NCBI GenBank assembly: GCA_000091205.1
Contig: AP006498.2
Direction: 5' to 3' (one strand)
DNA length: 64,000 nucleotides
Origin: Cyanidioschyzon merolae
Lineage: Eukaryota
The position numbers were made by a program, and so were the translations under genes. Shown here piece by piece: positions 2,000 through 62,925 of the stretch; position 1 is the stretch's first letter, and every line of letters starts with the position of its first letter. The notes beneath the pieces were generated by a model, which saw only the letters and a list, made by a program, of their open reading frames with translations, did not search any database and had not been told where the DNA came from.

Positions 2000-2245
2000 A
2001 ACCTTCTTTTGTCTACAGCTGCGACATTTGAACTTTGTCAATAAGAGCTCACGGATGAATACGTAGTTTTGGGATTCTCTGTCGTTGATTCGGTGTGACC
2101 TCGTCGCTGCTTCGTCGCTGGATTTCGTTGAATCAACGGGGTTACGATATATCTCGATGCCCTCGAACATGCTTTCGTAAACGAATCGATATCATTTTGC
2201 CATTTCATGCATAGAAGCCTCCGATCCTCTCCTTCCCTTCCATGA
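2000..2245. repeat. Dispersed short repeat family R4, copy 1 of 3 (about 250-300 bp).
   Basis: It shares ggcaataag.g..tacgga..catacg.agtt.t.ggatt.tc.gtcg, a middle block ccctcgaaca.g.tttgtaaa, and a ctcttc...ccc end with 12905-13200 and 54120-54420. Confidence 0.45.
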
Positions 2246-16412: not shown

Positions 16413-16675
16413 TGTTCAAAGCTCGTTAACAGGAACTATTCCACGAACACGAGTTAAACGTCCAGTCTGAACACTCTGTCTCACTTGCTCCGCAACAAGA
16501 ACAATATGCTCCCGTACCGGAACTCGCTCCTCTGACACACGTGTTCTAGCGAACGGCGCGTGTTTGACTATGAACACCAATGACTCTTAAGTAGACGCCC
16601 ATTGTATGAATGGGGCCGCGACACGATCGCTAGCGACGCGTCGATCGGCGCGCCGCAGCGATCGTGCGCCGACGG

Positions 16676-16696
16676 TTCGCGAAGGATTCGGAAGCT
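16676..16696. promoter_or_regulatory. Candidate heat-shock-element-like sequence upstream of HSP70.
   Basis: The sequence ttcgcGAAggaTTCggAAGc has alternating GAA/TTC units about 265-285 bp upstream of the HSP70 ATG. One spacer is 3 nt rather than the canonical 2 nt, so the match is imperfect. It coincides with the terminus of Fanzor copy A. Confidence 0.2.
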
Positions 16697-16699
16697 TTG

Positions 16700-16940
16700 C
16701 CGCGAAAAACGCCAGCGGCGTACAGTAGTGGCAGCGACCGCGCCTTAGACAAATCGTTCTCAGCTGACGTGCAGACGCCTCCCAGCCTTTCTCGACCGGC
16801 CACCTACTACTGCTTCCAACTTCTTCTCATATAGTTCGACTTTGAGGGGTTGTCCAACAAAGTTCTCTCTTGTCTATTCTGGAGATCTGTTCTCCAGCAC
16901 CGCACATCTCCGTATATTGCTAGGGGCATGAAAGTCACGA
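16700..16940 (-). ncRNA. Candidate guide-RNA (fRNA/omega-RNA) scaffold at the 3' end of Fanzor copy A.
   Basis: A roughly 230-nt stretch runs from the RuvC-III codons through the stop codon to the element terminus. It is conserved at nucleotide level in copies A, B, C and D, including past the stop where nothing is coding. It contains complementary segments (cagtagtaggtggc ... gccactactg). This placement matches where TnpB and Fanzor guide RNAs are encoded. No RNA evidence is available from sequence alone. Confidence 0.35.
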
Positions 16941-18274
16941 TTCACACACTCCATACGGTTCTTGCCATCATTGGTTGTACTTACTAACGCAGGCAATCCT
17001 CGAACGTTCGCCCTCCTTTCCATTTGCTCCTCTGTTAGCGGTCCGTACTTTGCGATTTCCTCAGGGCACCGCTGGCACTTGTCTATCTCGACCGTCTGAA
17101 GTGTACAACCCAGCTCGTGGTGTGTATAGGACGTTCGGAACTCATCTACAGGTATCGTGACGAGACGCCTTCCACACTCCTTGTACGTTCTTGTTGTTGG
17201 AGCTGGTATGCACCCCTTTTGGGTCTTCCATCGCCCTGCTCCATACGCTACGACGAGCCTTTGACTCTGGTCCCCGTTGAGCGCACGCAACTGATTGAAA
17301 AAGTTGGCAAACGCCCGCTGCCTCCCACAGTGTAGATTCATACGCAGACGGGCCCACCGAGGCTTTGTATATTCCTTCCACAGCGCATCCCAATGGGCAA
17401 CACGAACTTCCATGAATTTCCGAAAAGCTCGAAAGTCCGCTCCTCGGCTCGTCACCTCGCTCATAGCTTCCAGGTGCTCTTTCATTCCTGAATTCCACGT
17501 TTCGATTTTCTTCGTCGCATTTATGACACCGGATTCTCGATAGAATCTCGCTCTCGAGAACGTCAACAGACGGATGTCTTTCTGACGTAAGTTGCCGTAA
17601 GTACCATCTTCCGCCCGCTTCGGTGCTGCGATGGTTATGGTATTTGTGCTTCCGGGGTCCGTGCCAACGACAAAGTCGATATCCTGCACTTTCTGCTTCT
17701 CAGAACCCGCCTTCTTGTTCTCTTCATTCTTTACCGCGCCAACGACAAGGTCGTTATGCTCCACCTCCTGCATCGCAGGATCCGCCGTCTTCTTATCTTC
17801 ATCCTTCGTCACGTCAACGACAAGGTCGTTATCCTCCACCTCCTGAATCGCACGTTCCTCCTCTTTGTTTTCTTCATCCCTCGTCACGGGCGAAGTCAAA
17901 GGCGGAACTGGCCGATCTGTCTTCAACCGCCGATCGTGTACACAAAAGGCTACCCCATCGGTTTCGATCTTCCCAGTGAATACATTTTGCTTGCTCACTT
18001 TGGGACGCTTGGAATCGGAGATACGCTTCCAGTGGGTCTCCCGGTTTTCGCCGGTGAAATCCTTCCTGCTAACACTGAACTTCGGTCCGATCTCCCTCAT
18101 GATGCCGTAAAGGACGCCGGAGTCGATACTCACGAAGTATGACTTGATATTGGACAATGGAACCACGCCGGAGCGCTTCCCCACTAGGACAGCCTTCCGT
18201 CTCTCCCACTCTTCATTTGTCTCTTCACTCAGCTTCATCTCCGCCTTGCGTTCGAGCTCTCGGTCCAGAAACAC
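16874..18274 (-). CDS. Fanzor/TnpB-like RuvC nuclease, RuvC-containing C-terminal portion of copy A.
   Basis: Motifs: RuvC-I-like [17 protein letters not shown]; RuvC-II-like [22 protein letters not shown]; a zinc-finger remnant KCQRCPEE; RuvC-III-like [16 protein letters not shown] (canonical NRDFNAAINIRR in sister copies). Upstream of RuvC-I there are about 25-aa acidic repeats ([25 protein letters not shown]). Confidence 0.8.
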
Positions 18275-18308
18275 AAAGTACCGTAGGACGAGGCGATAGT
18301 ATCGTTCC

Positions 18309-18947
18309 TTATCTTTTTTTCAACTCTGATATCTTTTCTGTTTGATTCGCCAACCCCAGTACCGCACGGTGCTCTTGTACAGTCGCCCGGATCACAGAAG
18401 CTTCATTCGCGCTCTCGTTTGACGCCTTCTTCTCGACAAATTCGACCTCATCTTCATGCTGTCGATCTTTCGTGATGCCATTGATAGTCGCCCATTTTCC
18501 TTTGCGAGAGATGCCCGGGCGGAGTGCAACCGCGGCGCGGATCACGAAACGTTCGAGGTTCGTTGTCAAACGGCTCGTCAGGTTCGTGAGGTACTTCATC
18601 GCCCCGTGGTCGTAAATATCCGCGCCACCCCTGTATCGGGTACGCTCGAAGCGGAATGCCGCGAAGTTTTCGTGGAGGGCATGCACTAGCACATTTTCCC
18701 TCCACGTTCCTGCTGTACAAAGCATCAGGTAGAGAAAAATCGTCTTGTCGAAAACCTCGTCCGGAATCTCGACCGATTCCATGTGCGTCACGTCGAGATA
18801 CATCTCCCTCGCCAGATGCATCAGTCCTGACGAAGCCTTTATAATACTCATGGAGTACGACTCAACACGGTTTCTAGTTGCCTCCCGTAACTTCTCCACC
18901 CACGCATTCTTGATATGTTTAAGAAGACAGGCTTTCACCACCGTCAC
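18309..18947 (-). CDS. N-terminal portion of the same Fanzor gene (copy A). It is out of frame with the downstream part because of a +1 shift in an A7 tract.
   Basis: In copy C the homologous sequence is one continuous frame (ORF 60843..61577 spans both parts), so the break in A and B is a +1 indel in a poly-A tract. The listed start is a GTG and there is no in-frame ATG. An NLS-like basic segment (RKKNKKQ...RKRQRRRRGR) lies in another frame further upstream. The true N-terminus is unresolved and could reflect an intron, a frameshift or a sequencing error. Confidence 0.55.
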   Translation of the reverse strand: MTVVKACLLKHIKNAWVEKLREATRNRVESYSMSIIKASSGLMHLAREMYLDVTHMESVEIPDEVFDKTIFLYLMLCTAGTWRENVLVHALHENFAAFRFERTRYRGGADIYDHGAMKYLTNLTSRLTTNLERFVIRAAVALRPGISRKGKWATINGITKDRQHEDEVEFVEKKASNESANEASVIRATVQEHRAVLGLANQTEKISELKKR

Positions 18948-19266
18948 GTAGGACTCTTGTTTTTCGTGCAGCTTCTGACGTGGGCTCTCCCTCTTCTGCG
19001 TCTTTGTCTTTTCCTGTTACTCTCCGCCGGGCACTGTTTTTTGTTTTTTTTTCTGGCAGCCGGCGACACCTGCCTTCCAGGATCCTCCACTTGCTTTTCC
19101 AGAAATTTCCTTTTTTTCGAAAAAGAACGCGCTTTGAACGCTTCTGTTATAAACTGCGAAGAATCAACCGAATACACTCATTTGAGCGTTGAAACACGAC
19201 TGAGATGAAGTAATATATTTCGCTACGATTCCAATGCAAATACATGTTTTACGTTAAAACAACAAG

Positions 19267-19955
19267 TCAACGAATGGTCAGGATCGCGTTTCCCTTCAAC
19301 GGCGAGATGCGCGTCGTACCTCATGCCTGCCGGTTATGGAGGTGCGCATCTCGACCGCACTATATGCAGCAAAGAACAGGACTAGCTACTGACTAGCAAT
19401 GAGATGACCATTTCTTTCCCACTCTACAGTAAACGTTAAAAGGGCAAATGTTGCCATATCGTCGGAAGCTTACCTTCCAGGCGAAAGGTCCAGCGAGCCG
19501 GACGAGTCTCCGGGGGTTCGTGCTTCATGGCTTCCCCTTCGCCACCCCAGTGCCAGGTGCTTTAGTGATATCTGACCAACTCATCCCCGAAGCGGTTTAT
19601 TCCGGCATTAAGGGTGCTCAGGCAGCGTCTGGGCGTCGCCCTGGTCGCAGCGCATTCGGTGGTACGCCTACGCTGTTCTGTCCCTGTGCAGCATCCGCTC
19701 CAGCGGTACAAGCGCTGCGGCGGGTGCTCACCGCAGGCTCGGCGCACGAAAGAACGCACAAATCGACCAATCTAGCGGAAAGGGAGTCTAAGTAATGGAA
19801 CCTGGAGGCAGGGTGCACCATGATGGGCGCTTTCCCGAAAGCCGATATCCATCCCGCAATCCGTGATCCACGGTCAACGAATAGGTTTTCTCAGACCAGA
19901 AAAAGAACAAGACACGACGCACATCTCGCCGTTGAAGGGAAACGCGATCCTGATC
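19267..19955. repeat. MITE-like segment bounded by a 41-bp inverted-repeat pair. It encloses an R3 copy.
   Basis: ggtcaggatcgcgtttcccttcaacggcgagatgcgcgtcg at 19267-19307 is reverse-complemented at 19915-19955. The same pair occurs in the duplicate at 32415 and 33060. A single arm is present at 60089-60131 beside copy C. Confidence 0.45.
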
Positions 19956-20079
19956 ATGAACGTGTCGCTCTAACGGACAAGACGTGTTAGGGTTGAAGGG
20001 GCAGCAAGGTCTAGTCTTTCAATGCATTCGTGTTCCACTAGCCTCGTAGAGTATTCAAGTGGTTTTTCGCGGTTAACAG

Positions 20080-20583
20080 CAGATGCGTTCCAAGTGCGTT
20101 CGTTCTCAAAAAAAATAGAATGCAATGGTATGGACGTGAAAGTCGAGGATACCGGAGGACCGTCATTGCCGAGTTCGACAAGCAAAATGAGGAAATCCTC
20201 TTCCCGCCGACCACCTATCCAAGAAGAACAACGGGTGACGACAACGAAGACGATGACGATGACGACGATGCGATATAGGCGAGAAAAGGTGTTTGCTCAC
20301 CGGTACGTTTACGAAACTGTGGTGGCACAGAGAGCACGAGTTCGAGGCGTCTTCGCAAAGCGAGGTTCCACCATCGGCCATAAATGCAAGGAGTTCGTCG
20401 ACCGAGACCCCAACGTCGCCATCATGATCAGATAATATGCAGAGCGAAAGACTTTACCCGAGGAACTGACGCGATCTGACTTGCGGGGCAGTCTCTCAGG
20501 GTCTCCGTACACAACCAGAAGCTGAAGCCGACAGCAGGGCCCGGTCCAGCACGGCAGGGAGGCGTCTGCGGGTAGATATCCAT
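20080..20583 (+). mobile_element. Short non-autonomous Fanzor-derived element (family 2, F2a, about 500 bp).
   Basis: It has a Fanzor-type 5' terminus (gcgttccaagtgcgttcgttctcaaaaaaaata...gtcgaggataccggaggacc) joined to the 3' region, which encodes a RuvC-III remnant (KEFVDRDPNVAIMI) and a conserved tail ending gggtagatatccatg. The internal coding region is deleted. Confidence 0.6.
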
Positions 20584-22577
20584 GTATACGACATGGTCGT
20601 GGGACGTTTTTGTTCCACTGACAGGTGCGTTCGAGTTACATAGAACTGAACAGATCCACGGACAAAGACGTATGCACTAATATTTCGGCTTCTTTAAACG
20701 ACGCTGGTCTCTCCTTTCTCTCCGGCGCTGTTCATAGCAGTCGCACGATATTGGCGGTGGTGGTGTTCAGGCCCCGATTCCATAGCTGCCGACTCTTGTC
20801 TAGGCATTCCATGCACTGCCAAAAGTTGCCATCTTCGCTTCGCTTGCCATGTGCACCTTCTCTCCACTCTGTTGCGGTGCGCCCGTCGCAGCGTTGCCGC
20901 TTGGCTGTGGTCTGGCGGTCACATGCCACCAGCATACTTCGTCATCTGACGGCTAGTCGCTGACACGTGAACGCTCGCGTCGACGCTCCGTAACTGTGTG
21001 TGGCGGGTCCAGAAGCCTCACCTCAGTGCCCTGCTCCGTTCTCGCACCAGCTGCCGTAACCTACGCTCACGGGCTTCTGCTGGGCGATCGCCTCGGCGAG
21101 AGCGCTCCCCGCAGCACACGCCTGCGCATGCTGCTCCCTTCTCTAGACGACTCGTCGAAGGCGATGCTCTCCAGACAGGAACAGGTACCGCAACGAACCT
21201 CCCAGGCCGGCGTGCACGTCGTGAACTCTCGATCTGTCTTCGCTCGCTTCGCGCAAAGCAGTGACGCACACTCTACTCAAAGTCATCGCAGCGATGAGTA
21301 AAGCCCGGGTCCAAGACCCCTTTCCATGCGCAGAAAAGAGACGGGCGCCTCTGAGCGCATGTTCCGGGAACTGCACCATACTGCCAATGAGTGCCGCTCC
21401 GTCGATAGCCCCACATAGAGGTGGCATTGCCTCTCAAGCGAAACTGCCTGTTTGCAGTGATAAGCTGCGTGACGTTTCAGCGAGAGTCTGTGAACGAGTC
21501 GTCACGGCCTCAACCCAGGTATTTTTCGTCGTTCATCCAGCGACGTGAAGTGCTGCACCCGAGTGTCGCCTTGAAACAGAGGCATCGAACCTTGGCGCAT
21601 GCGAGTGATTCGTGCACGCTACACTTAGGAATATGAGAAGCGCAGAGGCTTGTACACATGTCGTGGAAGAAGATGCCTTTTATGTGATGAATCCTTGCTC
21701 GTGGGTGCCGCGCATCATTCAAATGACGGTGACGTGACGAATGCGAGCGGCAGAGGGTCTACAAAGCAACTCCGGATGTGCGACCCTGATTCCTACAGCT
21801 ACTTCCCAGTCCATGAGCCCGCACTGTTGCACTTTGCATCTACAGGCTGGAGATCTAAAACAATTGCGGAAAAATCTCAAGCCAGGAACTGCGCGAGCAG
21901 CTCAGTTCTCCACTTTAATCTGACTTAAGAATAGGATGCCATGGGTGCCTACAACTGGGACTCCGCGCGAACACGCTGCAGAAGCGTTGTTGCAGCCTCT
22001 GGACTGCAGGGAGCGCCACGCGGCGAACCAGGCCCTTTCCGCATACGACAACCCGACTCGCCAGGCTGTGACCTGGCCATACCTCAGATGGTGCTTCAGC
22101 GAACCTTGGTTCCGGACGGCCGACTTCATACGCTGGACATAGGAGCATTGCGTACTCTTTTGATCCTTCGAGAAAACATGTAATCGTTATGTGGGAACGA
22201 GCAACGCCCCTCACGGAGCATGCCACATTCGTTCTCCTGTTGCTCAACTGCCCCCCAGCCGCGGTGTCTGACGAGACGTTTGCTCTCGGGGACACCCGAC
22301 AAGTTAAATACGAACGGATTCGGGCATCCCAGGCCCGCTGATGCTATTCGAGAAGGCATACGCCTGTCGTAAATGAAACGCAATGTGTACCTCTATGGCG
22401 CACCCTCTGACGAGCAGATGCCAACACACGCGCGCTCGAAGACTGCTCCCGAAAGAAGGCCTTCCAGGACACGTAAGAGCTCTTCAATAGCATAGTGCTT
22501 GCAGCTGGTTCTGCTCAGTCCGCTCAGAGCGACGCTAGACCTCACACTGATTCCGTAGGAGCTTGCAACACAGTGCA

Positions 22578-24170: not shown

Positions 24171-24386
24171 TCAATAGGCTCCCGAGAGAAGCCTGGGGAG
24201 CTGCAAAAGATATCTGCAGTGGACCGTCGTGCGCTTCCAGGTTGCCCGACTTGGGCGAGTGCTCCACTGGAACGAACAGCAGCGAGAGCGCTCGATGACG
24301 CCCGGCGGCAGCGCAGCTGCAGATCGCACACTCGTCCATTTGCGGGTGTAGCTGCAATCGCTAAATTGTCAAGTGCAAGCGGCACC

Positions 24387-29212: not shown

Positions 29213-29793
29213 TCCTTTGACGCGATTCTTCTCGATATAATTGAAGCGTTGTCCAGTAACCTGAAAGATCGGGCGCTGCCAGAAAACTCGTCCGCAACAA
29301 GGCACGAAATGCACGCCCTGTCGAAGCGCAACAGCACACCGGTACAGTGTTAGCGGCCTTTCACCGCAGAAACTCGCACTGATGGTGCTTTACGGAAGCT
29401 TCTCTTCGTCGCGCCTTGAGCTCTGTTCCCGGTCGAAGCGAGGCTCCCCGGGTCTGCAAAGCTCTAATAAAGCCACGTGGGCAAAGAGTCGTGCACTGCA
29501 GCAGCTGCAGCACGAACCAGATATGCTGCACCCGTTCAGAGCAAGTGCAGTGCCTCGTCTCTACTGCCGATAACGGATCCGGAGACCGACGACGGTAGAG
29601 AAACCAAACGCCTTCACAGAGTCGAACGATGCCGACTGTGTACAGTAGTGGCGGTGAACGCGCCCTAGACTTAAAGTCGCCAATTGACGTGCAGACGCCT
29701 CCCAGCCTTTCTCGACCGGCCACCTACTACTGCTTCCAACTTCTTCTCATATAGTTCGACTTTGAGAGGTTGTCCAACAAAGTTCTCTCTTGT

Positions 29794-31419
29794 CTATTCT
29801 GGAGATCTGTTCTCCAGCACCGCACATCTCCGTATATTGCTAGGGGCATGAAAGTCACGATTCACAAACTCCATACGGTTCTTGCCATCATTGGTTGTAC
29901 TTACTAACGCAGGCAATCCTCGAACGTTCGCCCTCCTTTCCATTTGCTCCTCTGTTAGCGGTCCGTACTTTGCGATTTCCTCAGGGCACCGCTGGCACTT
30001 TTCCATCTCGACCGTCTGAAGTGTACAACCCAGCTCGTGGTGTGTATAGGACGTTCGGAACTCATCTACAGATATCGTGACGAGACGCCTTCCACACTCC
30101 TTGTACGTTCGTGTTGTTGGAGCTGGTATGCACCCCTTTTGGGTCTTCCATCGCCCTGCTCCATACGCTACGACGAGCCTTTGAGTCTGGTCCCCGTTGA
30201 GCGCACGCAACTGATTGAAAAAGTTGGCAAACGCCCGCTGCCTCCCACAGTGTAGATTCATACGCAGACGGGCCCACCGAGGCTTTGTATATTCCTTCCA
30301 CAGCGCATCCCAATGGGCAACACGAACTTCCATGAATTTCCGAAAAGCTCGAAAGTCCGCTCCTCGGCTCGTCACCTCGCTCATAGCTTCCAGGTGCTCT
30401 TTCATTCCTGAATTCCACGTTTCGATTTTCTTCGTCGCATTTATGACACCGGATTCTCGATAGAATCTCGCTCTCGAGAACGTCAACAGACGGATGTCTT
30501 TCTGACGTAAGTTGCCGTAAGTACCATCTTCCGCCCGCTTCGGTGCTGCGATGGTTATGGTATTTGTGCTTCCGGGGTCCGTGCCAACGACAAAGTCGAT
30601 ATCCTGCACTTTCTGCTTCTCAGAACCCGCCTTCTTGTTCTCTTCATTCTTTACCGCGCCAACGACAAGGTCGTTATGCTCCACCTCCTGCATCGCAGGA
30701 TCCGCCGCCTTCTTATCTTCATCCTTCGTCACGTCAACGACAAGGTCGTTATGCTCCACCTCCTGCATCGCAGGATCCGCCTTCTTCTCATTTTCATCCT
30801 TCGTTACGCCAACGACAAGGTCGTTATGCTCCACCTCCTGCATCGCAGGATCCGCCGCCTTCTTATCTTCATCCTTCGTTACGCCAACGACAAGGTCGTT
30901 ATGCTCCACCTCCTGCATCGCAGGATCCGCCGTCTTCTTATCTTCATCCTTCGTCACGTCAACGACAAGGTCGTTATCCTCCACCTCCTGAATCGCACGT
31001 TCCTCCTCTTTGTTTTCTTCATCCCTCGTCACGGGCGAAGTCAAAGGCGGAACTGGCCGATCTGTCTTCAACCGCCGATCGTGTACACAAAAGGCTACCC
31101 CATCGGTTTCGATCTTCCCAGTGAATACATTTTGCTTGCTCACTTTGGGACGCTTGGAATCGGAGATACGCTTCCAGTGGGTCTCCCGGTTTTCGCCGGT
31201 GAAATCCTTCCTGCTAACACTGAACTTCGGTCCGATCTCCCTCATGATGCCGTAAAGGACGCCGGAGTCGATACTCACGAAGTATGACTTGATATTGGAC
31301 AATGGAACCACGCCGGAGCGCTTCCCCACTAGGACAGCCTTCCGTCTCTCCCACTCTTCATTTGTCTCTTCACTCAGCTTCATCTCCGCCTTGCGTTCGA
31401 GCTCTCGGTCCAGAAACAC
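29794..31419 (-). CDS. Fanzor/TnpB-like RuvC nuclease, C-terminal portion of copy B (541 aa with the expanded acidic repeat).
   Basis: It has the same RuvC-I, RuvC-II, zinc-finger and RuvC-III motifs as copy A, and five to six copies of [25 protein letters not shown]. Confidence 0.8.
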
Positions 31420-31453
31420 AAAGTACCGTAGGACGAGGCGATAGTATCGTTCC

Positions 31454-32092
31454 TTATCTTTTTTTCAACTCTGATATCTTTTCTGTTTGATTCGCCAACC
31501 CCAGTACCGCACGGTACTCTTGTACAGCCGCACGGATCACAGAAGCTTCATTCGCGCTCTCGTTTGACGCCTTCTTCTCGACAAATTCGGCCTCATCTTC
31601 ATGCTGTCGATCTTTCGTGATGCCATTGATAGTCGCCCATTTTCCTTTGCGAGAGATGCCCGGGCGGAGTGCAACCGCGGCGCGGATCACGAAACGTTCG
31701 AGGTTCGTTGTCAAACGGCTCGTCAGGTTCGTGAGGTACTTCATCGCCCCATAGTCGTAAATATCCGCGCCACCCCTGTATCGGGTACCCTCGAAGCGGA
31801 ATGCCGCGAAGTTTTCGTGGAGGGCATGCACTAGCACATTTTCCCTCCACGTTCCTGCTGTACAAAGCATCAGGTAGAGAAAAATCGTCTTGTCGAAAAC
31901 CTCGTCCGGAATCTCGACCGATTCCATGTGCGTCACGTCGAGATACATCTCCCTCGCCAGATGCATCAGTCCTGACGATGCCTTTATAATACTCATGGAG
32001 TACGACTCAACACGGTTTCTAGTTGCCTCCCGTAACTTCTCCACCCACGCATTCTTGATATGTTTAAGAAGACAGGCTTTCACCACCGTCAC
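31454..32092 (-). CDS. N-terminal portion of the Fanzor gene in copy B, with the same A7-tract +1 frameshift as copy A.
   Basis: It is near-identical to 18309..18947. Confidence 0.55.
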   Translation of the reverse strand: MTVVKACLLKHIKNAWVEKLREATRNRVESYSMSIIKASSGLMHLAREMYLDVTHMESVEIPDEVFDKTIFLYLMLCTAGTWRENVLVHALHENFAAFRFEGTRYRGGADIYDYGAMKYLTNLTSRLTTNLERFVIRAAVALRPGISRKGKWATINGITKDRQHEDEAEFVEKKASNESANEASVIRAAVQEYRAVLGLANQTEKISELKKR

Positions 32093-33224
32093 GTAGGACT
32101 CTTGTTTTTCGTGCAGCTTCTGACGTGGGCTCTCCCTCTTCTGCGTCTTTGTCTTTTCCTGTTACTCTCCGCCGGGCACTGTTTTTTGTTTTTTTTTCTG
32201 GCAGCCGGCGACACCTGCCTTCCAGGATCCTCCGCTTGCTTTTCCAGAAATTTCCTTTTTTCGAAAAAGAACACGCTTTGAACGCTTCTGTTATAAACTG
32301 CGAAAAATCAACCGAATACACTCATTTGAGCGTTGAAACACGACTGAGATGAAATAATATATTTCGCTACGATTCCAATGCAAATACACGTTTTACGTTA
32401 AAACAACAAGTCAACGAATGGTCAGGATTGCGTTTCCCTTCAACGGCGAGATGCGCGTCGTACCTCATGCCTGCCGGTAATGGAGGTGTGCATCTCGACC
32501 GCACTATATGCAGCAAAGAACAGGACTAGCTACTGACTAGCAATGAGATGACCATTTCTTTCCCACTCTACAGTAAACGTTAAAAGGGCAAATGTTGCCA
32601 GATCGTCGAAAGCTTACCTTCCAGGCGAAAGGTCCAGCGAGCCGGACGAGTCTCCGGGGGTTCGTGCTTCATGGCTTCCCCTTCGCCACCCCAGTGCCAG
32701 GTGCTCTAGTGATATCTGACCAACTCATCCCCGAAGCGGTTTATTCCGGCATTAAGGGTGCTCAGGCAGCGTCTGGGCGTCGCCCTGGTCGCAGCGCATT
32801 CGGTGGTACGCCTACGCTGTCCTGTCCCTGTGCAGCATCCGCTCCAGCGGTACAAGCGCTGCGGCGGGTGCTCACCGCAGGCTCGGCGCACGAAAGAACG
32901 CACAAATCGACCAGTCTAGCGGAAAGGGAGTCTAAGTAATGGAACCTGGAAGCAGGGTGCACCATGACGGGCGCTTTCCCGAAAGCCGATATCCATCCCG
33001 CAATCCGTGATCCACGGTCGATGGATAGGTTTTCTCAGACCAGAAAAAGAACAAGACACGACGCACATCTCGCCGTTGAAGGGAAACGCGATCCTGATCA
33101 TGAACGTGTCGCTCTAACGGACAAGACGTGTTAGGGTTGAAGTGGCAGCAAGGTCTAGTCTTTCAATGCATTCGTGTTCCACTAGCCTCGTAGAGTATTC
33201 AAGTGGTTTTTCGCGGTTAACAGC

Positions 33225-33728
33225 AGATGCGTTCCAAGTGCGTTCGTTCTCAAAAAAAATAGAATGCAATGGTATGGACGTGAAAGTCGAGGATACCGGA
33301 GGACCGTCATTGCCGAGTTCGACAAGCAAAATGAGGAAATCCTCTTCCCGCCGACCACCTATCCAAGAAGAACAACGGGTGACGACAACGAAGACGATGA
33401 CGATGACGACGATGCGATATAGGCGAGAAAAGGTGTTTGCGCAACCGGTACGTTTACGAAACTGTGGTGGCACAGAGAGCACGAGTTCGAGGCGTCTTCG
33501 CAAAGCGAGGTTCCACCATCGGCCATAAATGCAAGGAGTTCGTCGACCGAGACCCCAACGTCGCCATCATGATCAGATAATATGCAGAGCGAAAGACTTT
33601 ACCCGAGGAACTGACGCGATCTGACTTGCGGGGCAGTCTCTCAGGGTCTCCGTACACAACCAGAAGCTGAAGCCGACAGCAGGGCCCGGTCCAGCACGGC
33701 AGGGAGGCGTCTGCGGGTAGATATCCAT
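33225..33728 (+). mobile_element. Short non-autonomous Fanzor-derived element (F2b). It is the duplicate of F2a.
   Basis: It has the same sequence as 20080-20583 within the duplicated block. Confidence 0.6.
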
Positions 33729-35220
33729 GTATACGACATGGTCGTGGGACGTTTTTGTTCCACTGACAGGTGCGTTCGAGTTACATAGAACTGAACAGAT
33801 CCACGGACAAAGACGTATGCACTAATATTTCGGCTTCTTTAAACGACGCTGGTCTCTCCTTTCTCTCCGGCGCTGTTCATAGCAGTCGCACGATATTGGC
33901 GGTGGTGGTGTTCAGGCCCCGATTCCATAGCTGCCGACTCTTGTCTAGGCATTCCATGCACTGCCAAAAGTTGCCATCTTCGCTTCGCTTGCCATGTGCA
34001 CCTTCTCTCCACTCTGTTGCGGTGCGCCCGTCGCAGCGTTGCCGCTTGGCTGTGGTCTGGCGGTCACATGCCACCAGCATACTTCGTCATCTGACGGCTA
34101 GTCGCTGACACGTGAACGCTCGCGTCGACGCTCCGTAACTGTGTGTGGCGGGTCCAGAAGCCTCACCTCAGTGCCCTGCTCCGTTCTCGCACCAGCTGCC
34201 GTAACCTACGCTCACGGGCTTCTGCTGGGCGATCGCCTCGGCGAGAGCGCTCCCCGCAGCACACGCCTGCGCATGCTGCTCCCTTCTCTAGACGACTCGT
34301 CGAAGGCGATGCTCTCCAGACAGGAACAGGTACCGCAACGAACCTCCCAGGCCGGCGTGCACGTCGTGAACTCTCGATCTGTCTTCGCTCGCTTCGCGCA
34401 AAGCAGTGACGCACACTCTACTCAAAGTCATCGCAGCGATGAGTAAAGCCCGGGTCCAAGACCCCTTTCCATGCGCAGAGAAGAGACGGGCGCCTCTGAG
34501 CGCATGTTCCGGGAACTGCACCATACTGCCAATGAGTGCCGCTCCGTCGATAGCCCCACATAGAGGTGCCATTGCCTCTCAAGCGAAACTGCCTGTTCGC
34601 AGTGATAAGCTGCGTGACGTTTCAGCGAGAGTCTGTGAACGAGTCGTCACGGCCTCAACCCAGGTATTTTTCGTCGTTCATCCAGCGACGTGAAGTGCTG
34701 CACCCGAGTGTCGTCTTGAAGCAGAGGCATCGAACCTTGGCGCATGCGAGTGATTCGTGCACGCTACACTTAGGAATATGAGAAGCGCAGAGGCTTGTAC
34801 ACATGTCGTGGAAGAAGATGCCTTTTATGTGATGAATCCTTGCTCGTGGGTGCCGCGCATCATTCAAATGACGGTGACGTGACGAATGCGAGCGGCAGAG
34901 GGTCTACAAAGCAACTCCGGATGTGCGACCCTGATTCCTACAGCTACTTCCCAGTCCATGAGCCCGCACTGTTGCACTTTGCATCTACAGGCTGGAGATC
35001 TAAAACAATTGCGGAAAAATCTCAAGCCAGGAACTGCGCGAGCAGCTCTGTATTGCATTGATTCTAACACTGGCGCTGCATCAGGTGCCGCCGCTGTTTC
35101 TCTGCAAAGCTCTGCCGTGCGCTCTCTCTCGCTTTCTCTCTCTACAACCTCCTCTCCGCGCCCTTGGCCAAAACACGTGAACAGAGTGCTGGATGTCGAG
35201 CATAACGCCCCGTTGCGCAG

Positions 35221-35726: not shown

Positions 35727-36500
35727 CCAACGCCGTTCGAAAGTCGAACGACGCCAACGGTGTACAATAGTGGCGAGTGACCCGCCCTAGAGGAGACGTC
35801 GCCAGTTGATGTGCGGACGCCATCCAATCTTTCTCGACCGGCCACGTACAACTGCTTCCAACTTTTTCTCATATAATTCCACGTTGGGAGGTTCTCCCAC
35901 AAAATTCTCTCTTGTCTACTTTGGAGGTCTATTCTCCAGCACCGCACATCTCCTTATATCGATAGCTGCGTTAAGGTCTCGGTTCACAAACTCGATACGT
36001 TTCTTGCCATCATTGGTTGTACTTACTAATGCAAGTAGCCGTCGAACTTTTGCCCTCCTTTCCATTTGCTCGTCTGTCAGCGGTCCGTACTTTTTTATAT
36101 CCTCAGGGCTCCACTGACACTTTTACATTTCCACTCTCTGAGGTGTGCATCCGAGTTCATGGTGTGTACACGATGTTCGGAACTCATCTACAGGTATCGT
36201 GACGAAACGCCTTGCGCACTCCTTTTACGTTCTTGTCGATGGAGCTGGTGTAGTCCCTTTTTGGGTCTTCCATCGGCCTGCTCCGTACGCTACTACGAGC
36301 CTCTGACTTTCATCCTCCTTCAGGGCACTCAGCTGATTGAAGAAGTTTGCGAACGCCCGCTGCCTCCCACCGTATAGATGCATACGCTGACGAGCCCACC
36401 GGGGCTTTGTATACCCTTTCTACAGCTCCTCGTTATGAGCAGCGCGAGTATTCATGAACTCCAGAAAAGCCTGAAAGTCCGCTCAACGGCTCGTCACGTT
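35727..36500 (-). mobile_element. Truncated family-1 Fanzor element (copy D), 3' part only. Its terminus abuts the cytochrome b5 start codon.
   Basis: It aligns with the 3' roughly 770 bp of copies A and B, covering the tail, the stop and the RuvC-III/zinc-finger region. It ends in gccactattgtaca followed by cgttggcgtcgttcgactttcgaacggcg. Similarity to A and B stops near 36500. Confidence 0.65.
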
Positions 36501-36539
36501 ACCGATAGATGAGTAACGAACGACTTTCGTCCACCATGA

Positions 36540-36900
36540 GTTGGGACGTACACTTCAGAAGGTAGAGATGGAAAAAGCCAGCGGGGCGCTCCGGAGATGA
36601 AAGAGTACGGAGAGCTGCCAGAGCAGGAAATTGCAGTGAGGGCACGAGGCCGTGGACTCCTTGCATTCATAAGTTCCACCAGCGGCGGAGCATGCAAGGA
36701 GTTCGTGAACCGAGACTTTAACGCAGCTATTAATATCAGAAGATGTGCAGTGCCGGAGACGAGACCCGAAGAGCTGACGCGATCTAATTTTGTGACACAG
36801 CCTCTCAGGCTCCAAGTGTACAGAGAGAAGCTGAAACCGATAGCCGAGGGCAGGTCGAAAAAGACTGGGAGATGTCTGCGCGATAGTAGATACACACAAA
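36540..36900 (+). mobile_element. 3' fragment of a plus-oriented Fanzor-derived element (E) with a degenerate zinc finger. It is joined tail-out to copy D.
   Basis: It encodes KSQRGAPEMKEYGELPEQ (compare [19 protein letters not shown]), then VNRDFNAAINIRRCAVPE, then an F2-type tail ending gatagtagatacac. Confidence 0.55.
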
Positions 36901-37372
36901 TACCGCCCATGGCCGCGAAACGTTCTTCATTTTGCTGAATGTATAGATCATCTTCCGCCGGATGCACCAGCGATGTCCCCGGCACAAACGCTCCAACAGA
37001 AGATGTATTTCTTTTGGCAAGCCGTCGCACGGAAGACTTGCTCGGATACCGATGTTGGACGTCTGGGTCTGCATAATATTCTCAAACGAATGCTGATCCA
37101 GATTCTACCGTGGCATCTCTCGCAACGCATGAACTTCGCGCGAACCCGTTTCATCGTGTGCGTACGGCTTCCGCAAACCCCCTACATTTCAAAATCCGCT
37201 CACTCGGTGGTTGCCAACGCGGGGGTGAGGCCAACCTCATGTCGCCCTCTTTGAAACGCGCCTCCGGGGCGGAGCGTTCGCCACTCGGGTGATCCCAAAG
37301 ATGGATACCCCCGCAGCGATGCATATCGGTGGAGCGCATCCCAAGGAAGCGCGCCCCTATGATTTTCCGTCA

Positions 37373-42910: not shown

Positions 42911-43179
42911 TGTACCAAGAACAAAAAGCTGCGCTGCTTTGTAGTACAAGGCGAAATGCGGTCAAGAAGCCTGGAGACAATTCCGGGTGCGGGCTCTCCG
43001 CGAGCACAAGCCGACGTTCTGGCTCTCTGAATGGACAGGGTCCAGTACGGGATGGTGCCGGCTTCACTAGATGCCGATAACCATGATGCATTCGAGGAGC
43101 TCTGCTTCTAGTCTTCCAGGTAAATTATGCTGGATTCTGCAGGTTCGTATCATCAAAAGCTTTTTTACGGTTTATAGTG

Positions 43180-43669
43180 AATGCATTCGAAGTGCGTTCA
43201 TTCGAAGTGTAAAAAATCCATAGGAAATATATGGACATGGAGGTCGAGGATCCTGGTGGACCCCCATCGCCGTGCTCGACAAAGGAAACAAAAAAAGTCC
43301 TCTTCTCGCTGGCCATGGATCGAAGAAGAGCGCATGACGGAGAAGAACAGGGGGAATAGGCGAGAAAAGGTGTTTGCCGGACGGTACGTTTACAAAACTC
43401 TAGTGGTACAGGGGGCACGAGTTCCAGCTATCCTTGCGTTGATGAGTTCCACCATCGGCGGCAATAGAAGTATGGAGCTCGTGAACCGCGACTTCAAAGC
43501 TGCCATCAATATCAGACGATACGCGTTGCTAAAGACGAGACCCGCGGATCTGACGCGATCCAACTTTGCGGGACAGCCTCGCAGGGCCTAACTTTACAAG
43601 CAGACGCTAACGTCGATAGCATGAGGCCCGTCTAAAAAGGCCGGGTGGCGTCCGCAGGTGGATATTCGT
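43180..43669 (+). mobile_element. Short non-autonomous Fanzor-derived element (F2c).
   Basis: It has a 5' terminus gcattcgaagtgcgttcattcgaagtgtaaaaaat...gtcgaggatcctggtggacc, a 3' region encoding RSMELVNRDFKAAINIRRYALLK, and a tail ending ggtggatattcgt. Confidence 0.6.
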
Positions 43670-46600
43670 TTACCGACTTATGTGTATGCTTTGAAACAAC
43701 ATCCCCAGGATGCATGATGGAGATCGATAGCCAGCTGCAGGACCTCAGTTCCCTTTGAAATGCTAAAACATTTCGTTAACTCCATGTTCAACTAGCCGTC
43801 TGGGACAGAGTCTTGATCCGATGAGCCCCTCGTGTATCGAACCTACCATGAGCACCGGCTGTGAAGCTAGATGCTTCGCCAGCGCAATTGTTTCCTCGAG
43901 ACAGAACAGCTCGGCTATACCTTTGCGGGTGTCGGCTCCAGTGCGCTGCTGCTCCCGCTGACGTGATGCGCAGCTACGGAAAAGCGATGTAGAGGCAGCC
44001 CCGATGACCGGGAGCGTTTGCCCATATGCGGAAACCTGGCTCAATGCCATCATCCCGCCCGACACACAAGCGGTATTACGCTTCCTGCTGCGCAGAGCAG
44101 TTCCGATGCAGCCAGCTGCTGGGAGTCTCTCCACGAGCATATTCGAGAACAGTTACGGAAAATTCATGAAAGACGCTCGATGAAGTGGAATATGGCTGTG
44201 AGCATGGCAGCAGTCAAACGCCAGAAGGCAAACGTGCCAGAATCCAACATAGAGAAGCGCGCTCAACAGTCTTTGCGTACAGCCCCGCTCCCATCTCTTG
44301 TCGCTGCTCATGCATGGCGTACGACGGGGTTGCGACGGTGCGCACCGAACTCCATCCAGCATGGTGGAACTGAGCGAGACATTTGGCAGCAGATGCACCT
44401 TCAGTTAGGTAAGCAGAGAAACAGACAGAGCCCGCCATTGACCGCGCTAGAAGATTCAGAAGTAGCTTGAAGAAGCTGCTCCGTCATCCCAGTTGCTTCT
44501 GTTTCCAACACAACAGGTCATACGCTCGCTCAGTGGAATCGCCATGAGGCACCTGTCCGCAGTGATCATTCTCTCCAGCTGCAAAGGACTCGGAGCACGC
44601 CAATTCTGTGCTTTCCCGAGATGGCAGCACAGCGTTCGGGATCACCGTTATCTGGATGACCCAGATCGTACGAGCATTGATGCCAGAGGAGGTCGACGGG
44701 TGGACTGTGCGTTCACTGCAGCCTTCGATCCGTCTGTTGACGTTTAGAAACGGACGTCGTCTGCCCAAGCACTCACGGCGGAGCACCTGCACCGAAGCTA
44801 CGGCACCCAATAAGTTGCATGCTGCCCTTTCCCGCCCGTCCGTCCGCGAATGCACGCTGCCAATGTTTTTCGTTTCAAAGAACGTTTACACTAACCAGTG
44901 ATACCCGACTGCAAGCTCGATATCAGCGATCGGAGAAGCGTTTGTCGTCCCGCCGACCTTCAGGCTCCATGACTTGCACTTCACCTCCGAGATACTGGAC
45001 ATTTATCACGCTGCCGATACGCGCAGTCGAGCAGGTTGCCGCAACGCTGTGTATGTTGACTCGGCGAAGGGGGCGGACGGGCGGCTGTCTCACTCAGAGG
45101 CAGCGCCCCGGACTCTGCATCATAACCTCTTTCTGTGTTCCGAACAACCCGAGACCTGCATACTCCACCAAAGCTCGGTTCTCCCAAATAGAACCACTTT
45201 GCATCCATACACCTAGATCGGGATAGATGTTTCGTCTTGCACTCAATACGCTAGCACCTATGTCAGAATGAATACGAACTGGATTACGAACTCGGGCGTA
45301 CTCTATAAAGCTTAAACCTCTTCCCGTTACCGCCAGCATCAGCCTTTGCGAATTTTTCCTGCAATTGCTTTTTCCTTGCATGTTATCTTCAGCTTTCAGT
45401 AGCTACGCTCTCGTGCCCATCTAGCTCCATTGTCAGCGGTCGATGGATGCCCATTGCAACGTGAAACTCCCGATTCCGCCGCTTCTGGTTGTATGCTATT
45501 CATGTCATGGACTGGAAAAAGGTTGCGGTCTACGCTTCGCTTGCTATTTCCATCTTCATCGCAACCAGCTTCGGTGCGTCTTTTGCAGCCGTGATACTTG
45601 GCTGTGGTCAGGTGTTCGCATATATCCACGATTTTTCCTCCTCCGGGAGCTGCTTACTTGCACATGAACGTTTGCTTCATCGCTCGGTTCATGCACTTGA
45701 CGGGTACAGCAGCCTCAACACAAGGCCCTGGTCCTTTTGCGCACCAGTACCCATATCCACTTATCACGAGCTTCTTCTGGGCAAGCCTTTTGGTGAGGTC
45801 CATATCTGCTGCATGCGCAAGGGTACGCTGTTCCATTCGATACAGAATTTGTGGAACGCGATTTTGTTCATGATGAAAAGAAAACCAGAAGGGATATTCA
45901 GACAGGCGAACAAGTCTAGACACTTAGATACGCCCATGCTGCTTTGGAGCAAAGCAGTGACACGCTCTCCGCTGGAAACCATCACCGCGATGATGGAGGT
46001 CCGAGTCCGATACCCTTTTCCATGAACACAGAAACGAAGGCAGCCTCTGGGAATGTATCCCGTGATATGTATCACGCTGCAGTGGAATCATATTTCTTGG
46101 ACGGCGACGATGAGAGGAAGTTTCTCTTTCGAACGGAGTCGATGATTGCACATGAGAAAATCAGGGAACTTTCTGCATGAACTTGTGGAGAAGCCTTCAT
46201 GGGCTGATGTCGAGCTTTTTCCCTCGTCAATCCACCGGCGTGAATCACGGCGCCTGCGAGTCCCTCTGAGGCAAAAACATTGAGATTTTGAAGAATGCAC
46301 GATCCGGCCATGCATCAGGGAAGGAAAAACAATGCGGAGCTCCTTGTACGCATGTCCTGGATAATTATATTGGTTATTTTACGAACCCGGTGTTCGACGG
46401 CATCGCGAATTATCCTGATGAAGATGCCGTGACGAATTCTAGCGCCAACGGGCCGAGGTAGTTTCTCAGAAAACGCGACCACGCATCCTAAACCTACGGA
46501 TGAATCGGCAAGCCCCAAGTGCTGCACTTCGAGTCTCGAACCTGCAGATATAAAAAACAGTTCGGAAAAATCGAAAGACAGGAATAGAACGAAAAAACTG

Positions 46601-52274: not shown

Positions 52275-53489
52275 GTGGAGCGCCCGCACCGCCACACTTT
52301 AGAAACCGCTCTCCTTGGTCTGCTTGCCGCTCAACCGACGCCAACTGCGCCGTCCACACGCCTAGAGCGCTCTGTGAGAGGTTGCTCGTCTGCGAGATCT
52401 CAAATTTTTATGACTGCAATGTTCAAGACTCGTGGTGCAGCCCCCATGGCCCGAACGGAGATCGTGCAGCTCAGTCGTCCATCGTTGCTATAGCCCTTGA
52501 ACTCGATTTCGTTCCGTCCCTGCCGCGTGTCATCGAATGCTTGTTCGCAGTGTATTGCAGGAGATCGAAATCGCTAAGCAATATGCCGCATAGATCTCGG
52601 ACGAATTGAATGTAGTATATATTCTTTCACTGAAGAGTGCAAGGAGGACTGCATTCTTCTTTCAGGTCAGTCGTACCACAGTACTCCGATAACAGAGGAA
52701 CACTGAAACAAAGAACTACATGCGCTCCGCGCCTTACATCGATATTATCAATGTGTGTTTGCAGTCCGTCGAAGAAACGCGACCCGTTGGTCACATTTCG
52801 GAAAGCAAAAGCGACGATGGTAGTCACCACGGGCGTCTGTGTGGCTCAACAGCTTGCTCGTGTGGTCCTGAATGCATTGGGATGCAATCCAGTAAAAGAG
52901 ACCTAGTTCACGCACGGCGTTCTTCCACACAAATCGCAACGAAAAAAAGTTCCTGGAACGTCGCGATCAGTATGAAGTACCCGGCGGTCGGTTTGTTTGT
53001 TCAGTCGGTGACACTTGCTTCGGACGAGAAGGTCGGATCGTGTATGAGTATTCGTGGGGCAGGGCGCCCATTTTATGTACAATCGAACTCGAATAGAACG
53101 AGGAAATCATAATCTGTTCTAGCTTTAGTGTATTCAAGTGGTGGCTCCAATTTCGCTCATAGAGAGGGCTCATATTAGAGCGCTTACGTTGTCGAATCAT
53201 TGAAGACTTTTCCCTGACGCCCGGCGACGCCCTTCAATTGGAAGACATGGTACTTCGCAAGTCCCGTTGCGTTCGAGCTTTTGTCGAATCGATCGAGGAG
53301 TAGAGCTGCTTTTCATTTCTCCGTACGCTCCGTGATTTAACCCCATCGAGGGAGTGTTTCGTATTGTGATACGTAATGACAGCTCCACTGGGTGAATCGC
53401 TGAAGCGTGCAGCACACGGTGACACACCAGGCCACATGTCGTCGTCCTTATGCAAGTCCTTCTCTCTCTAGGAAGGTACTCGCCTAACG

Positions 53490-53980
53490 GCATAAACAAG
53501 TATGTTCTTTTGAAGAAACATGAAATTCAAGGGAAAGTTACGGACATGGATGTCGAGAATCCTGGAGGCCCGATGTCTCCGGATCCGAAAGAAAATATTC
53601 GCCTCCCCGACCATGGAGCGAAGAAGAGCAATTCATGACGACGACGACGATGATGACGACGATGCGATATAGGCGAGAAAAGTTGTTTGCTCGACGGTAC
53701 GTTTGCGAAACTGTAGTGGCACCGAGAGCACGAGTTCGAGGCATCTTCGCAAAGCTAAGTTCCACTATTTGCAGTAAATGAAAGGATTTCGTTTACCGAG
53801 ACCTCAACGCCGCGATCATTATCAGACAAATGTGCAGTGCGAAAGACGATACCCGAGGAACTGACGCGATCTAACTTCGCAGGGCACTCTCTCAGGCTCA
53901 AAGTGTGTCTAGATAAACTGAAACCGATAGCACGTGGCTGGTCAAAAAAGGCTGCGAGGCTTCTCAGGGTGGATATTCAT
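53490..53980 (+). mobile_element. Short non-autonomous Fanzor-derived element (F2d).
   Basis: It has a 5' terminus ...aaacatgaaattcaagggaaagttacggacatggatgtcgagaatcctggaggcc, the shared block ggcgagaaaagttgtttgctcgacggtacgtttgcgaaactgt, and a tail ending gggtggatattcat. Confidence 0.6.
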
Positions 53981-54119
53981 TTACTCTATGGTCCTGGGAT
54001 ATTTTCTGTTTCACGGATCACATGTATACAGCGACTAGTTCAGATGCCGATCGGCGTCCTGTCCAACGCTAACTACACCAGTTCCAGGATAAAATGTGAC
54101 ATGGAACTATTCGCTCTGT

Positions 54120-59394: not shown

Positions 59395-60240
59395 TGATTT
59401 TTTCGATGACAAAACGTTTACATTGACCTTGCATCCCGGATTGCAGGATAGATAATGGTAATCAAAGAAGTGTCCAACATGATGCACCTTACCTCCAAGT
59501 TCCATGACTTATTCTCGGATGTATTGGTCGTTTCGTATGTTCTATCGTGCGCCAGGTACCTGCTTTGAGCACCCGCCTTGGTACCTAAACTGCTGTTACG
59601 GATGCTGCACGTAAACAGAGCGGCTTTGCCATACCACTGAGCGCTTCGGCTGGAGGAATGCTTCACCTAACATGGAGTCGGGATCCATTATAATCCTGGG
59701 TGCCGGTAAGCTGTGCAGACAGACGTACTGTCTGCGGCAGCGCGAAGCGATGTACAAGGAGTCCACTGCGACCGGGGCGATCCCCAGACGCAGCGTACCC
59801 GCTCCTAGTCTTGGAATAAACTGCGTTTTGGACGAGCTGCTCAGGTCCATTCACAGCACTGGGCGCTGGAAAGAGCATGAATGACTGGTCTAGCAGACAC
59901 GTCCGGCTCGCGAGACCCTCCTCCTATAGGGTAAACTTTCGACAGTGTGGAAAGCGTGTCCGCCTTTTAACGTTTATCGTAGATGGGGAAAGTAATCATT
60001 TTATTGTCGCTACTTAGTGGCTTCTTTCTGTTCTTCGTTCTGAATAGAGCGCTCGATGCGCGAACCTCCATACCTGGCAGGAACTGAACATGTCGCGTAT
60101 CTCGCAGATGGAGGGAAACGCGATCCTGACCGCTCCTTGCCCTATTTCTCTAAAGGGCGAGTTGTATTCTCGTTAACTTCATAGCCAAGTATAGTTTTCA
60201 ATTCGATTGCTTTTCAACCCTCAAGTAAAAATATTCGATT
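59395..60240 (+). repeat. R3 repeat copy immediately upstream of Fanzor copy C.
   Basis: It aligns with 570-1250 and, in reverse complement, with 19250-19880. It contains one arm of the 41-bp inverted repeat at 60089-60131. Confidence 0.5.
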
Positions 60241-60249
60241 GACTTTTCG

Positions 60250-62690: not shown

Positions 62691-62925
62691 CTGGCGTCGT
62701 TCGACTTTCGAACGGCGTTTTGCGATGGTTTGATCGTTGCAACGCTCCAGGAGCAAACAAGGCTTGGAAACGTGCACGCTTTTCATGGAAAGAGCGCAGC
62801 GCTGCTTGCAGAGAGAGCCTTTGATGCGGTAGAGGTGCTTGGTGCTCGTCGCTGAGAGTCCGCGAAGCAACTGCACCAAAACTGGCGACGGCAAGGTTTT
62901 ATCTATGTGCATGGTAGTCGCGAAA

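Follow-up and report, generated by a model that had tools for sequence, protein, structure and literature searches.

The window analyzed here, a 64,000-bp stretch of the nuclear genome of Cyanidioschyzon merolae 10D, carries full-length and fragmentary copies of a Fanzor1 element together with shorter elements derived from it. The published 3,169-bp consensus of that element, CMe-1A, was mapped onto the window, and the features are listed in Table 1. CMe-1A is listed as the C. merolae Fanzor1 family, with ~150 copies at ~80% identity to the consensus, no inverted repeats, and target-site duplications given as undetermined (Bao & Jurka 2013, Mob DNA 4:12). TE-N2_CMe (635 bp, ~70 copies) was described in the same study and corresponds to the 5' 635 bp of CMe-1A; solo copies of TE-N2 lie in the window at 565-1198 and ~44872-45500. 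The same 3.2-kb interspersed repeat was reported as 253 copies that make up ~5% of the genome and are transcribed (Nozaki et al. 2007). A 2024 paper on dispersed repeats (PMC11050394) was uninformative on this family. A 99-bp satellite at 24386-24973 was also observed, and this satellite is derived from TE-N2 positions ~519-615.

The large elements A, B, and C encode the peptides GADPGNTN, VDEFRTS, and NRDFNAAINI. The parent copies and the consensus carry a stretch ending in KC as well as FVNRDFNAAINI, and the motif set D...[TS][TS]-x-x-zinc finger...RD is present in the C-terminal half. From this Fanzor1/TnpB motif set, the short copies retain only the RD block. Homologues of the large elements numbered 153 in hot-spring metagenomes. 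The best PDB match of the family profile was SpuFz1, the Fanzor1 of Spizellomyces (8GKH), with an E value of only 0.14. Nothing significant was matched in Pfam, NCBIfam, or PDB when these were searched by sequence with the consensus protein, an ORF from the window, and a homologue from the metagenomes, and an AlphaFold model of the parent protein, built from a shallow alignment of 37 sequences, had a pLDDT of 38, too low to justify a fold search. Two window ORFs are identical to the C. merolae 10D proteins BAM81788.1 and BAM81784.1, and the remaining long ORFs are intronless eukaryotic housekeeping genes (e.g., Suv3, Hsp70, and MgtE).

Table 1. Full-length, fragmentary, and short Fanzor-derived elements and associated features in the 64-kb window
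Feature	Coordinates	Strand	Remarks
Full-length Fanzor1 element A	16710..19896	-	CMe-1A 4-3145, with 240-366 deleted; family-1 type 3' end
Full-length element B	29638..33040	-	Duplicate of A except for the last ~65 bp and the number of 75-bp repeat units
Full-length element C	59404..62717	+	CMe-1A 1-3169, 84-87%; TTTTTT 5' flank, TTTT 3' flank
Fragment D	35731..36497	-	Family-1 element reduced to its 3' 770 bp (CMe-1A 2400-3169)
Short copy S1	19906..20625	+	Longest 5' leader, from CMe-1A ~683; former ATG at 20130
S1 deletion junction zone	20299..20330	+	CMe-1A ~1046-1070 joined to ~2809-2835
S1 3'-terminal hairpin	20595..20622	+	GGTCGTGGGACG-TTTT-TGTTCCAC-TGAC
S2	33050..33770	+	Duplicate of S1 (99.7%); identity extends into both flanks
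Short copy S3	43107..43705	+	Independent, 68% to S1; junction at 43380-43411; 3' end degenerate
S4, leader part 1	52489..52574	+	Cut off by a ~920-bp insertion at 52575-53497
Short copy S4	53498..54024	+	Independent, 75% to S1; leader part 2 and body
S5	36491..36935	+	5'-truncated tail of variant (S) type; aligns colinearly with full-length copies from CMe-1A 2692 onward
Segmental duplication, copy 1	16765..21904	.	Partner at 29685-35049, 98.7%; includes element A and S1, with a further 1.28 kb downstream

Short elements and a duplicated segment in the window

The region 20000-20700 was compared with the window by BLAST. It matched 33144-33845 at 99.7% over 702 bp, 53523-54017 at 75%, 36673-36880 at 71%, and 43153-43665 at 68%, and it also matched 60232-60342, which is a 5' piece of a full-length element. 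A 21-nt tail motif occurred five times in the window, compared to no occurrence in 100 shuffles. The RuvC-III remnants described in the original prediction were found as quoted, with the peptide KEFVDRDPNVAIMI at 20388 and 33533 and the peptide LVNRDFKAAINIRRYALLK at 43478. The size of about 500 bp and the ends given with it were revised, as the similarity extents of S1, S3 (to ~43705), and S4 correspond to short elements of ~600 to 720 bp.

The original prediction counted at least five short copies. Repeats are indeed present at all of those places, but only three of them are independent short copies, S2 being a duplicate and the element at 36540-36900 being the truncated tail of a full-length element. 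This last element (S5), which had been described as a fusion of terminus to tail, does not belong to the short family. Its sequence runs colinearly with that of full-length elements, and it has retained RuvC-II, still encoding RLVTLPIDE.RTTFVHHELG, which corresponds to the RuvC-II and zinc-finger stretch. S5 adjoins the inverted family-1 fragment D head-to-head at 36491-36497. S1 and element A are likewise arranged head-to-head, with the 5' end of A at 19896.

Self-comparison of the window revealed that 17663-21906 matches 30808-35051 at 98.7% and that 16720-17888 matches 29640-30808 at 97%. The tract of high identity begins at ~16765/29685, in the tail at the 3' end of a full-length Fanzor element, and stops sharply at 21904/35049. 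Because the 99.7% match between S1 and S2 runs well past the element, the copies at 20080 and 33225 represent one insertion that was doubled together with 5.1 kb of its surroundings. Thus, S2 arose through segmental duplication rather than insertion.

Internal junction, spread, and decay of the short family

Next, the short copies were compared with CMe-1A. S1 matches CMe-1A 683-938 with 80% identity (at 19907-20162), S3 matches 832-937 and 2849-3088, and S4 matches 869-962; the tails match at 70 to 74%. The 5' part of the short copies corresponds to CMe-1A ~830-1070 and comprises the leader followed by the ATG (position 906) and 55 codons for the basic N terminus. The 3' part begins at CMe-1A ~2833, extends through the variant tail to its 3' end, and matches the last ~280 bp of the parent. 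The proposed fusion of the Fanzor 5' terminus to the last ~300 bp was therefore correct for the 3' part, but the 5' part consists of the first ~55 codons together with the leader that immediately precedes the ATG and is not the terminus of the 3.17-kb consensus. The short elements in the window are non-autonomous and derive from the Fanzor element by internal deletion.

One internal junction, which joins CMe-1A ~1046-1070 to ~2809-2835, is common to 12 distinct copies from the window and from metagenome contigs. The loss at this junction is ~1.76 kb, is in frame, and lies between two imperfect 25-bp direct repeats; the parental sites look alike (GACGACAGTACGACGAGATGGTGGTGAAAG and GTACGGAGCGCTGACGGAGGAGCAAATGGAAAGG), and one GAAAG is kept. 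The S1 ORF passes through the junction in frame (..YETVVAQRARVRG..), and in S4 the junction maps to 53693-53724 and the hairpin to 53990-54019. Splicing was considered and rejected as the origin of the deletion, since the boundaries are not GT-AG and one copy of the GAAAG microhomology is retained, which makes this a microhomology deletion rather than a splice.

Scanning of the metagenome contigs with the tail motif yielded 71 loci, 45 of which contained an element, although copy numbers and the apparent conservation of the motif are biased because these copies were fetched by the motif itself. Removal of allelic duplicates left ~16 distinct loci, none syntenic with the window. Several of the loci are 95 to 99% identical to the window and thus come from C. 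merolae-like strains. A profile search of the window and the metagenome contigs recovered 12 distinct short copies and several 5'-truncated tails, as well as full-length elements with the variant (S) tail type (L011, L019, and L066). Hyperconservation of ACCCGnnGAnCTGACGCGATC was rejected as evidence, as this is the fetching pattern and has two to three mismatches in copies found otherwise.

Imperfect direct repeats flanking a deletion could favor its recurrence, in which case the short copies would have arisen many times with breakpoints that are similar but not identical. However, all 12 short copies align end to end with the junction in the same register (profile position ~217), and the tails of full-length and truncated elements all begin to match the short-element profile at 214-222, which places the junction at the same position in all copies. 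In addition, the short copies share a TCCTCTTCTCGC block in the N-terminal region that is absent from full-length copies, and one sub-lineage has a further insertion in common: the ~920-bp sequence that splits the leader (52575-53497 in the window) is present at four loci (S4, L009, L019, and L062). Recurrent independent deletion is scarcely credible in light of these features. The same insertion at four loci also indicates that the family was still spreading after that event.

Spread solely by duplication of host DNA, without transposition of the short form, is exactly what happened with the pair at 20080 and 33225. The other copies, however, have unrelated flanks on both sides, with similarity falling sharply at both element ends, so that this explanation is contradicted for 11 of the 12 lineages and is highly improbable for the family. 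The original prediction had set a propagated family with a shared internal junction against random deletions with different breakpoints, and the former was borne out by one junction in 12 copies with unrelated flanks. We conclude from these alignments that the short elements are a propagated family and not the product of repeated independent deletions. No clear target motif emerged for the short copies, whose 5' ends can be placed only to ~10 bp at this level of divergence.

Pairwise identity among the short copies ranges from 61 to 75%, with the star-like pattern of an old family lacking deep substructure, and conservation is flat along the short element (~0.78). At the first, second, and third codon positions, the mismatch to the consensus is 0.233, 0.212, and 0.243, respectively (about 23% overall). 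Such even distribution over codon positions indicates neutral decay and argues that no mini-protein has been maintained. A selected protein of ~147 residues (the basic N-terminal region, RuvC-III, and the tail), perhaps inhibiting Fanzor or serving as its RNA-binding partner, could be imagined as the product of the deletion, given that the deletion is in frame and that S1 retains a 137-codon ORF spanning the junction. Yet all copies other than S1 contain stops and frameshifts, and the consensus itself is broken in a poly-A stretch; together with the even substitutions, these defects make a mini-protein gene very improbable.

The tail and its terminal hairpin

Translation of the variant-tail consensus revealed that the tail is almost entirely Fanzor C-terminal coding sequence. 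The sequence ggatattcat, originally taken to be the terminus, is found in its exact form only at 53971, where it lies ~45 to 50 bp inside the element end and in the parent reading frame (VDIH). A hairpin forms the actual 3' end. The hairpin of the S-type consensus (GGTCGTGGAACG-TTTT-CGTTCCAC-TGAC) has a z score of -6.1, and 0 of 200 shuffles folded as well. Family-1 3' ends have different hairpins at the same place (z scores of -2.1 to -3.1), and near the TE-N2 3' end the z score is -3.5; no hairpin was found at 5' ends (z score of ~0). When a 40-nt window was moved along the tail, excess folding was seen only in the terminal ~40 nt (mean z score of -1.28, below -1.5 in 8 of 19 copies).

Over the ORF, full-length elements carrying the variant tail are ~20% diverged from the published consensus, but in the last 250 bp the divergence reaches 40 to 55%. 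This difference in divergence shows that the second terminus subfamily of the original prediction is real and is defined by its 3' module, the variant 3' end being present on the three full-length elements named above as well as on short copies. The tail is the most diverged part between the two subfamilies, synonymous sites included.

The guide RNA of TnpB and Fanzor systems is encoded in the last stretch of the element, overlapping the end of the ORF. The short elements could, by analogy, be guide-RNA modules, that is, units of a promoter and an omegaRNA whose retention and spread would be due to a Fanzor guide RNA encoded in the tail; a Fanzor protein supplied in trans would process the tail RNA and use the 3' flank as guide, so that each copy would be protected or re-homed. 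Such modules would represent a counterpart in eukaryotes to the elements derived from bacterial IS200/IS605 in which only the ends and the guide RNA persist. What the short copies retain is precisely the gene leader (a likely promoter) and the last ~300 bp, the tail is present in every copy (including those that are 5' truncated), the hairpin directly precedes the 3' boundary, and the parent elements are reported to be transcribed. Against this idea, RNAalifold found no conserved pairs in 18 tails, the consensus tails folded like shuffles (z scores of -1.3 and -1.6) with a local excess confined to the last 40 nt, and no Rfam match was present in 16000-21500. Moreover, decay is even, with no protected block besides the fetching motif, and the divergence between subfamilies is greatest in the tail. 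A weakly structured guide RNA in a once-active master copy may be compatible with these observations, and the terminal hairpin fits a cis-acting end signal as well as it fits the last stem of a guide RNA. Overall, we regard guide-RNA modules as an unlikely explanation, and retention of the tail as a guide-RNA region, as originally put forward, gained no computed support.

Mobilization of the short family and comparison with known systems

The elements are most probably fossils of a single CMe-1A subfamily that is internally deleted and non-autonomous. A single deletion of ~1.76 kb, between imperfect 25-bp repeats sharing GAAAG, arose in a parent that had the variant (S-type) 3' end. Codons ~56-643 were removed, and with them the REC/WED region, RuvC-I, RuvC-II, and the zinc finger, leaving a ~100- to 220-bp leader, 55 N-terminal codons, ~92 C-terminal codons (RuvC-III and the tail), and the 3' end. 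The deleted product was then copied to many unrelated sites, with the sub-lineage carrying the ~920-bp leader insertion copied again, and neutral decay of all copies followed. Movement was presumably provided in trans by the parent's own mobilizing machinery. The 3' ~300 bp is always kept, which suggests that the 3' end and its terminal hairpin serve as the essential cis signal, and the 5' end is likely to be dispensable or variable because many copies are 5' truncated. Under either of the mechanisms considered below, an indispensable 3' end would be the simplest reason for the short family to keep its tail. Some short copies adjoin other repeats or other copies head-to-head, and these are not accounted for by this model.

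The best candidate for the mobilizing machinery, which we suggest only tentatively, would be a single-strand or rolling-circle (Helitron-like) process that depends on the 3' hairpin and inserts into T-runs. Many 5'-truncated copies have intact 3' ends. A T-run precedes 5 of 5 complete 5' ends, all of them of CMe-1A or TE-N2 and none of a short copy, the 3' flanks of family 1 open with TT, and copy C lies within TTTTTT^TTTT. The short elements had been called MITE-like, and they are indeed internally deleted and non-autonomous, but they have neither terminal inverted repeats nor demonstrable target-site duplications. The best end-to-end inverted alignment did not exceed that of shuffles for S1, S3, S4, the consensus, CMe-1A, or copy C, and no target-site duplication was visible at the approximate element ends. 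Canonical Helitron ends (5'-TC...CTRR-3') are absent, CMe-1A starting with CGATGAC and ending with AAAGGCG. No RepHel gene is present within the 64-kb window, and no transposase of any kind was identified in this analysis.

Truncation at the 5' end with an intact 3' end is also compatible with LINE retrotransposition. The parent and short elements could, in this case, have been copied via RNA by the reverse transcriptase (RT) of a non-LTR retrotransposon, in a SINE-like manner, with the 3' hairpin as the recognition signal. The lack of inverted repeats, the 3' stem-loop, and the transcription of the elements would agree with this route, and the C. merolae genome contains 26 non-LTR elements, 3 of them with an intact RT ORF (Nozaki et al. 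2007). However, the 3' ends have no poly-A or simple-repeat tail, the full-length element has ~900 bp upstream of the ATG (including a 635-bp module that is separately mobile), the deletion junction is not a GT-AG splice, and elsewhere Fanzor1 genes are known to travel as passengers on DNA transposons. Retroposition is decidedly unlikely on this evidence and is a weaker alternative to a Helitron-like process.

The parent repeat accounts for ~5% of one of the simplest eukaryotic genomes, and a deletion derivative that has spread shows which parts suffice in cis: the leader, the first 55 codons, and the last ~300 bp with the hairpin. With so many copies truncated at the 5' side, the essential part can be confined to the 3' end. 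The short family thus offers a concrete minimal element for mobilization and guide-RNA experiments in a genetically tractable alga. A more far-reaching reading, and a quite unlikely one, is that the short elements are guide-only Fanzor parasites in a eukaryote; a related reading is that the CMe-1/TE-N2 system as a whole, so far unclassified and ~5% of the genome, is moved into T-runs by a single-strand mechanism dependent on the 3' hairpin. Under the first, the elements would consist of a leader/promoter and a 3' region out of which Fanzor cuts its guide RNA, each copy would direct a Fanzor protein in trans to its own empty site, and the two tail types would represent two guide/nuclease specificities. 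Under the second, Fanzor1 in this alga would be tied to an HUH-type partner, as TnpB is to TnpA.

The parent CMe-1A and a short derivative, TE-N2_CMe, have already been published, and the short family extends that work and overturns nothing; it is an ordinary non-autonomous transposon relic and not a new system. Like the short elements, CMe-1A has no inverted repeats and no determinable target-site duplication, and the two match at CMe-1A 683/830-1070 and 2833 to ~3090 with 70 to 80% identity. Unlike CMe-1A, the short elements lack ~1.76 kb of coding sequence and the 5' 635 to 830 bp, and their last ~60 to 250 bp are of the variant type, 40 to 55% diverged from the published consensus. TE-N2_CMe is likewise a short relative of CMe-1A in the same genome without inverted repeats, and it is non-coding. 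TE-N2_CMe is limited to the 5'-most 635 bp of CMe-1A; none of that sequence occurs in the short family, which begins after it and retains the 3' end.

Outside this genome, copies of the Fanzor1-carrying Helitron2 elements CRe-1, -2, and -3 of Chlamydomonas (Bao & Jurka 2013) resemble the short family in their internal deletions, frequent 5' truncation with intact 3' ends, and 3' hairpin. Their insertion at TTTT^T without duplication recalls the T-runs beside the complete 5' ends of CMe-1A and TE-N2. They differ in sharing their ends with verified RepHel-encoding Helitrons and in having a 5' hairpin and asymmetric inverted repeats. Miniature elements derived from bacterial IS200/IS605 (PATE type) have similarly lost the nuclease gene while retaining both ends along with the region encoding the guide RNA in the parent, and they, too, have a subterminal hairpin at the right end. 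In the bacterial miniatures, however, hairpins at both ends are recognized by a known TnpA and the omegaRNA fold is conserved, whereas the elements described here have the 3' hairpin only.

Duplication and repeat-number change in the full-length Fanzor copies

The left edge of the 5.1-kb duplication falls within Fanzor 3'-tail sequence. The final ∼65 bp of the two Fanzor copies involved are only ∼65 to 70% alike, and the outer flanks of the two halves are unrelated to each other. Together, these sequence features suggest recombination or conversion begun in Fanzor-tail homology. Directly upstream of RuvC-I, the Fanzor ORF carries a 75-bp in-frame tandem repeat that encodes an acidic unit resembling a 22-letter peptide (not shown). 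The repeat comprises 3 to 6 units depending on the copy, and the number differs even between the halves of this recent duplication.

Repeats and repeat arrays in the window and in metagenome loci (L)
Feature	Location	Details
Solo TE-N2_CMe (5' 635-bp module)	565-1198; ∼44872-45500	
99-bp tandem array	24386-24973, reaching ∼25259	5.9 copies, 90% matches
5.1-kb duplication	16765-21904; 29685-35049	98.7% identity
75-bp Fanzor ORF repeat	17663-17888; 30583-31033; 61523-61745	
Head-to-head pair A/S1	19896/19906	
Head-to-head pair D/S5	36491-36497	
Head-to-head pair, two short copies	L062, ∼2070-2140	
∼920-bp repeat interrupting S4 leader	52575-53497	Also L009, L019:10400-12200, L062
First low-copy dispersed repeat	20766-21353; 45506-46049; 2823-3101 (-); 54999-55185 (-)	
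Second low-copy dispersed repeat	2036-2330; 54178-54473	
Tandem array	3893-4473	Period 75/229 bp
Tandem array	12371-12795	Period 71 bp, 97% matches

TE-N2 modules, adjoining elements, and the S4 insert

TE-N2_CMe, the published element corresponding to the 5' end of CMe-1A, also occurs alone. Each solo copy has a T-run in front of it, and so do two full-length copies at their 5' ends (19896 and 59404). The 99-bp array derives from CMe-1A/TE-N2 consensus positions ∼519 to 615, a segment that contains the TE-N2 3' hairpin.

CMe-1-type elements of differing subfamilies were also seen to adjoin head-to-head, a few bases apart, as with full-length copy A and short copy S1 or the family-1 3' fragment D and the variant-type tail S5. 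Such pairs may arise because elements prefer to insert at the 5' ends of copies already in place, or they may result from template switching.

The leader of S4, a short internally deleted derivative, is interrupted by an insert that lacks a long ORF. The leader motif CGAAGTGCG lies on either side of it, an apparent duplication, and its ends are weakly inverted (..ATATGCCGCATAG / ..CTAACGGCATAA). The composite of S4 leader and insert is common to four loci, and the insert could represent a small DNA transposon in its own right.

Other repeats

Neither of the two tandem arrays at 3893-4473 and 12371-12795 is related to the Fanzor family, and neither low-copy dispersed repeat is related to the CMe-1A consensus. 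Copies of the dispersed repeats share 65 to 70% identity and were found a few hundred bases 3' of short or TE-N2 copies. Repeats seem to cluster in the C. merolae genome.
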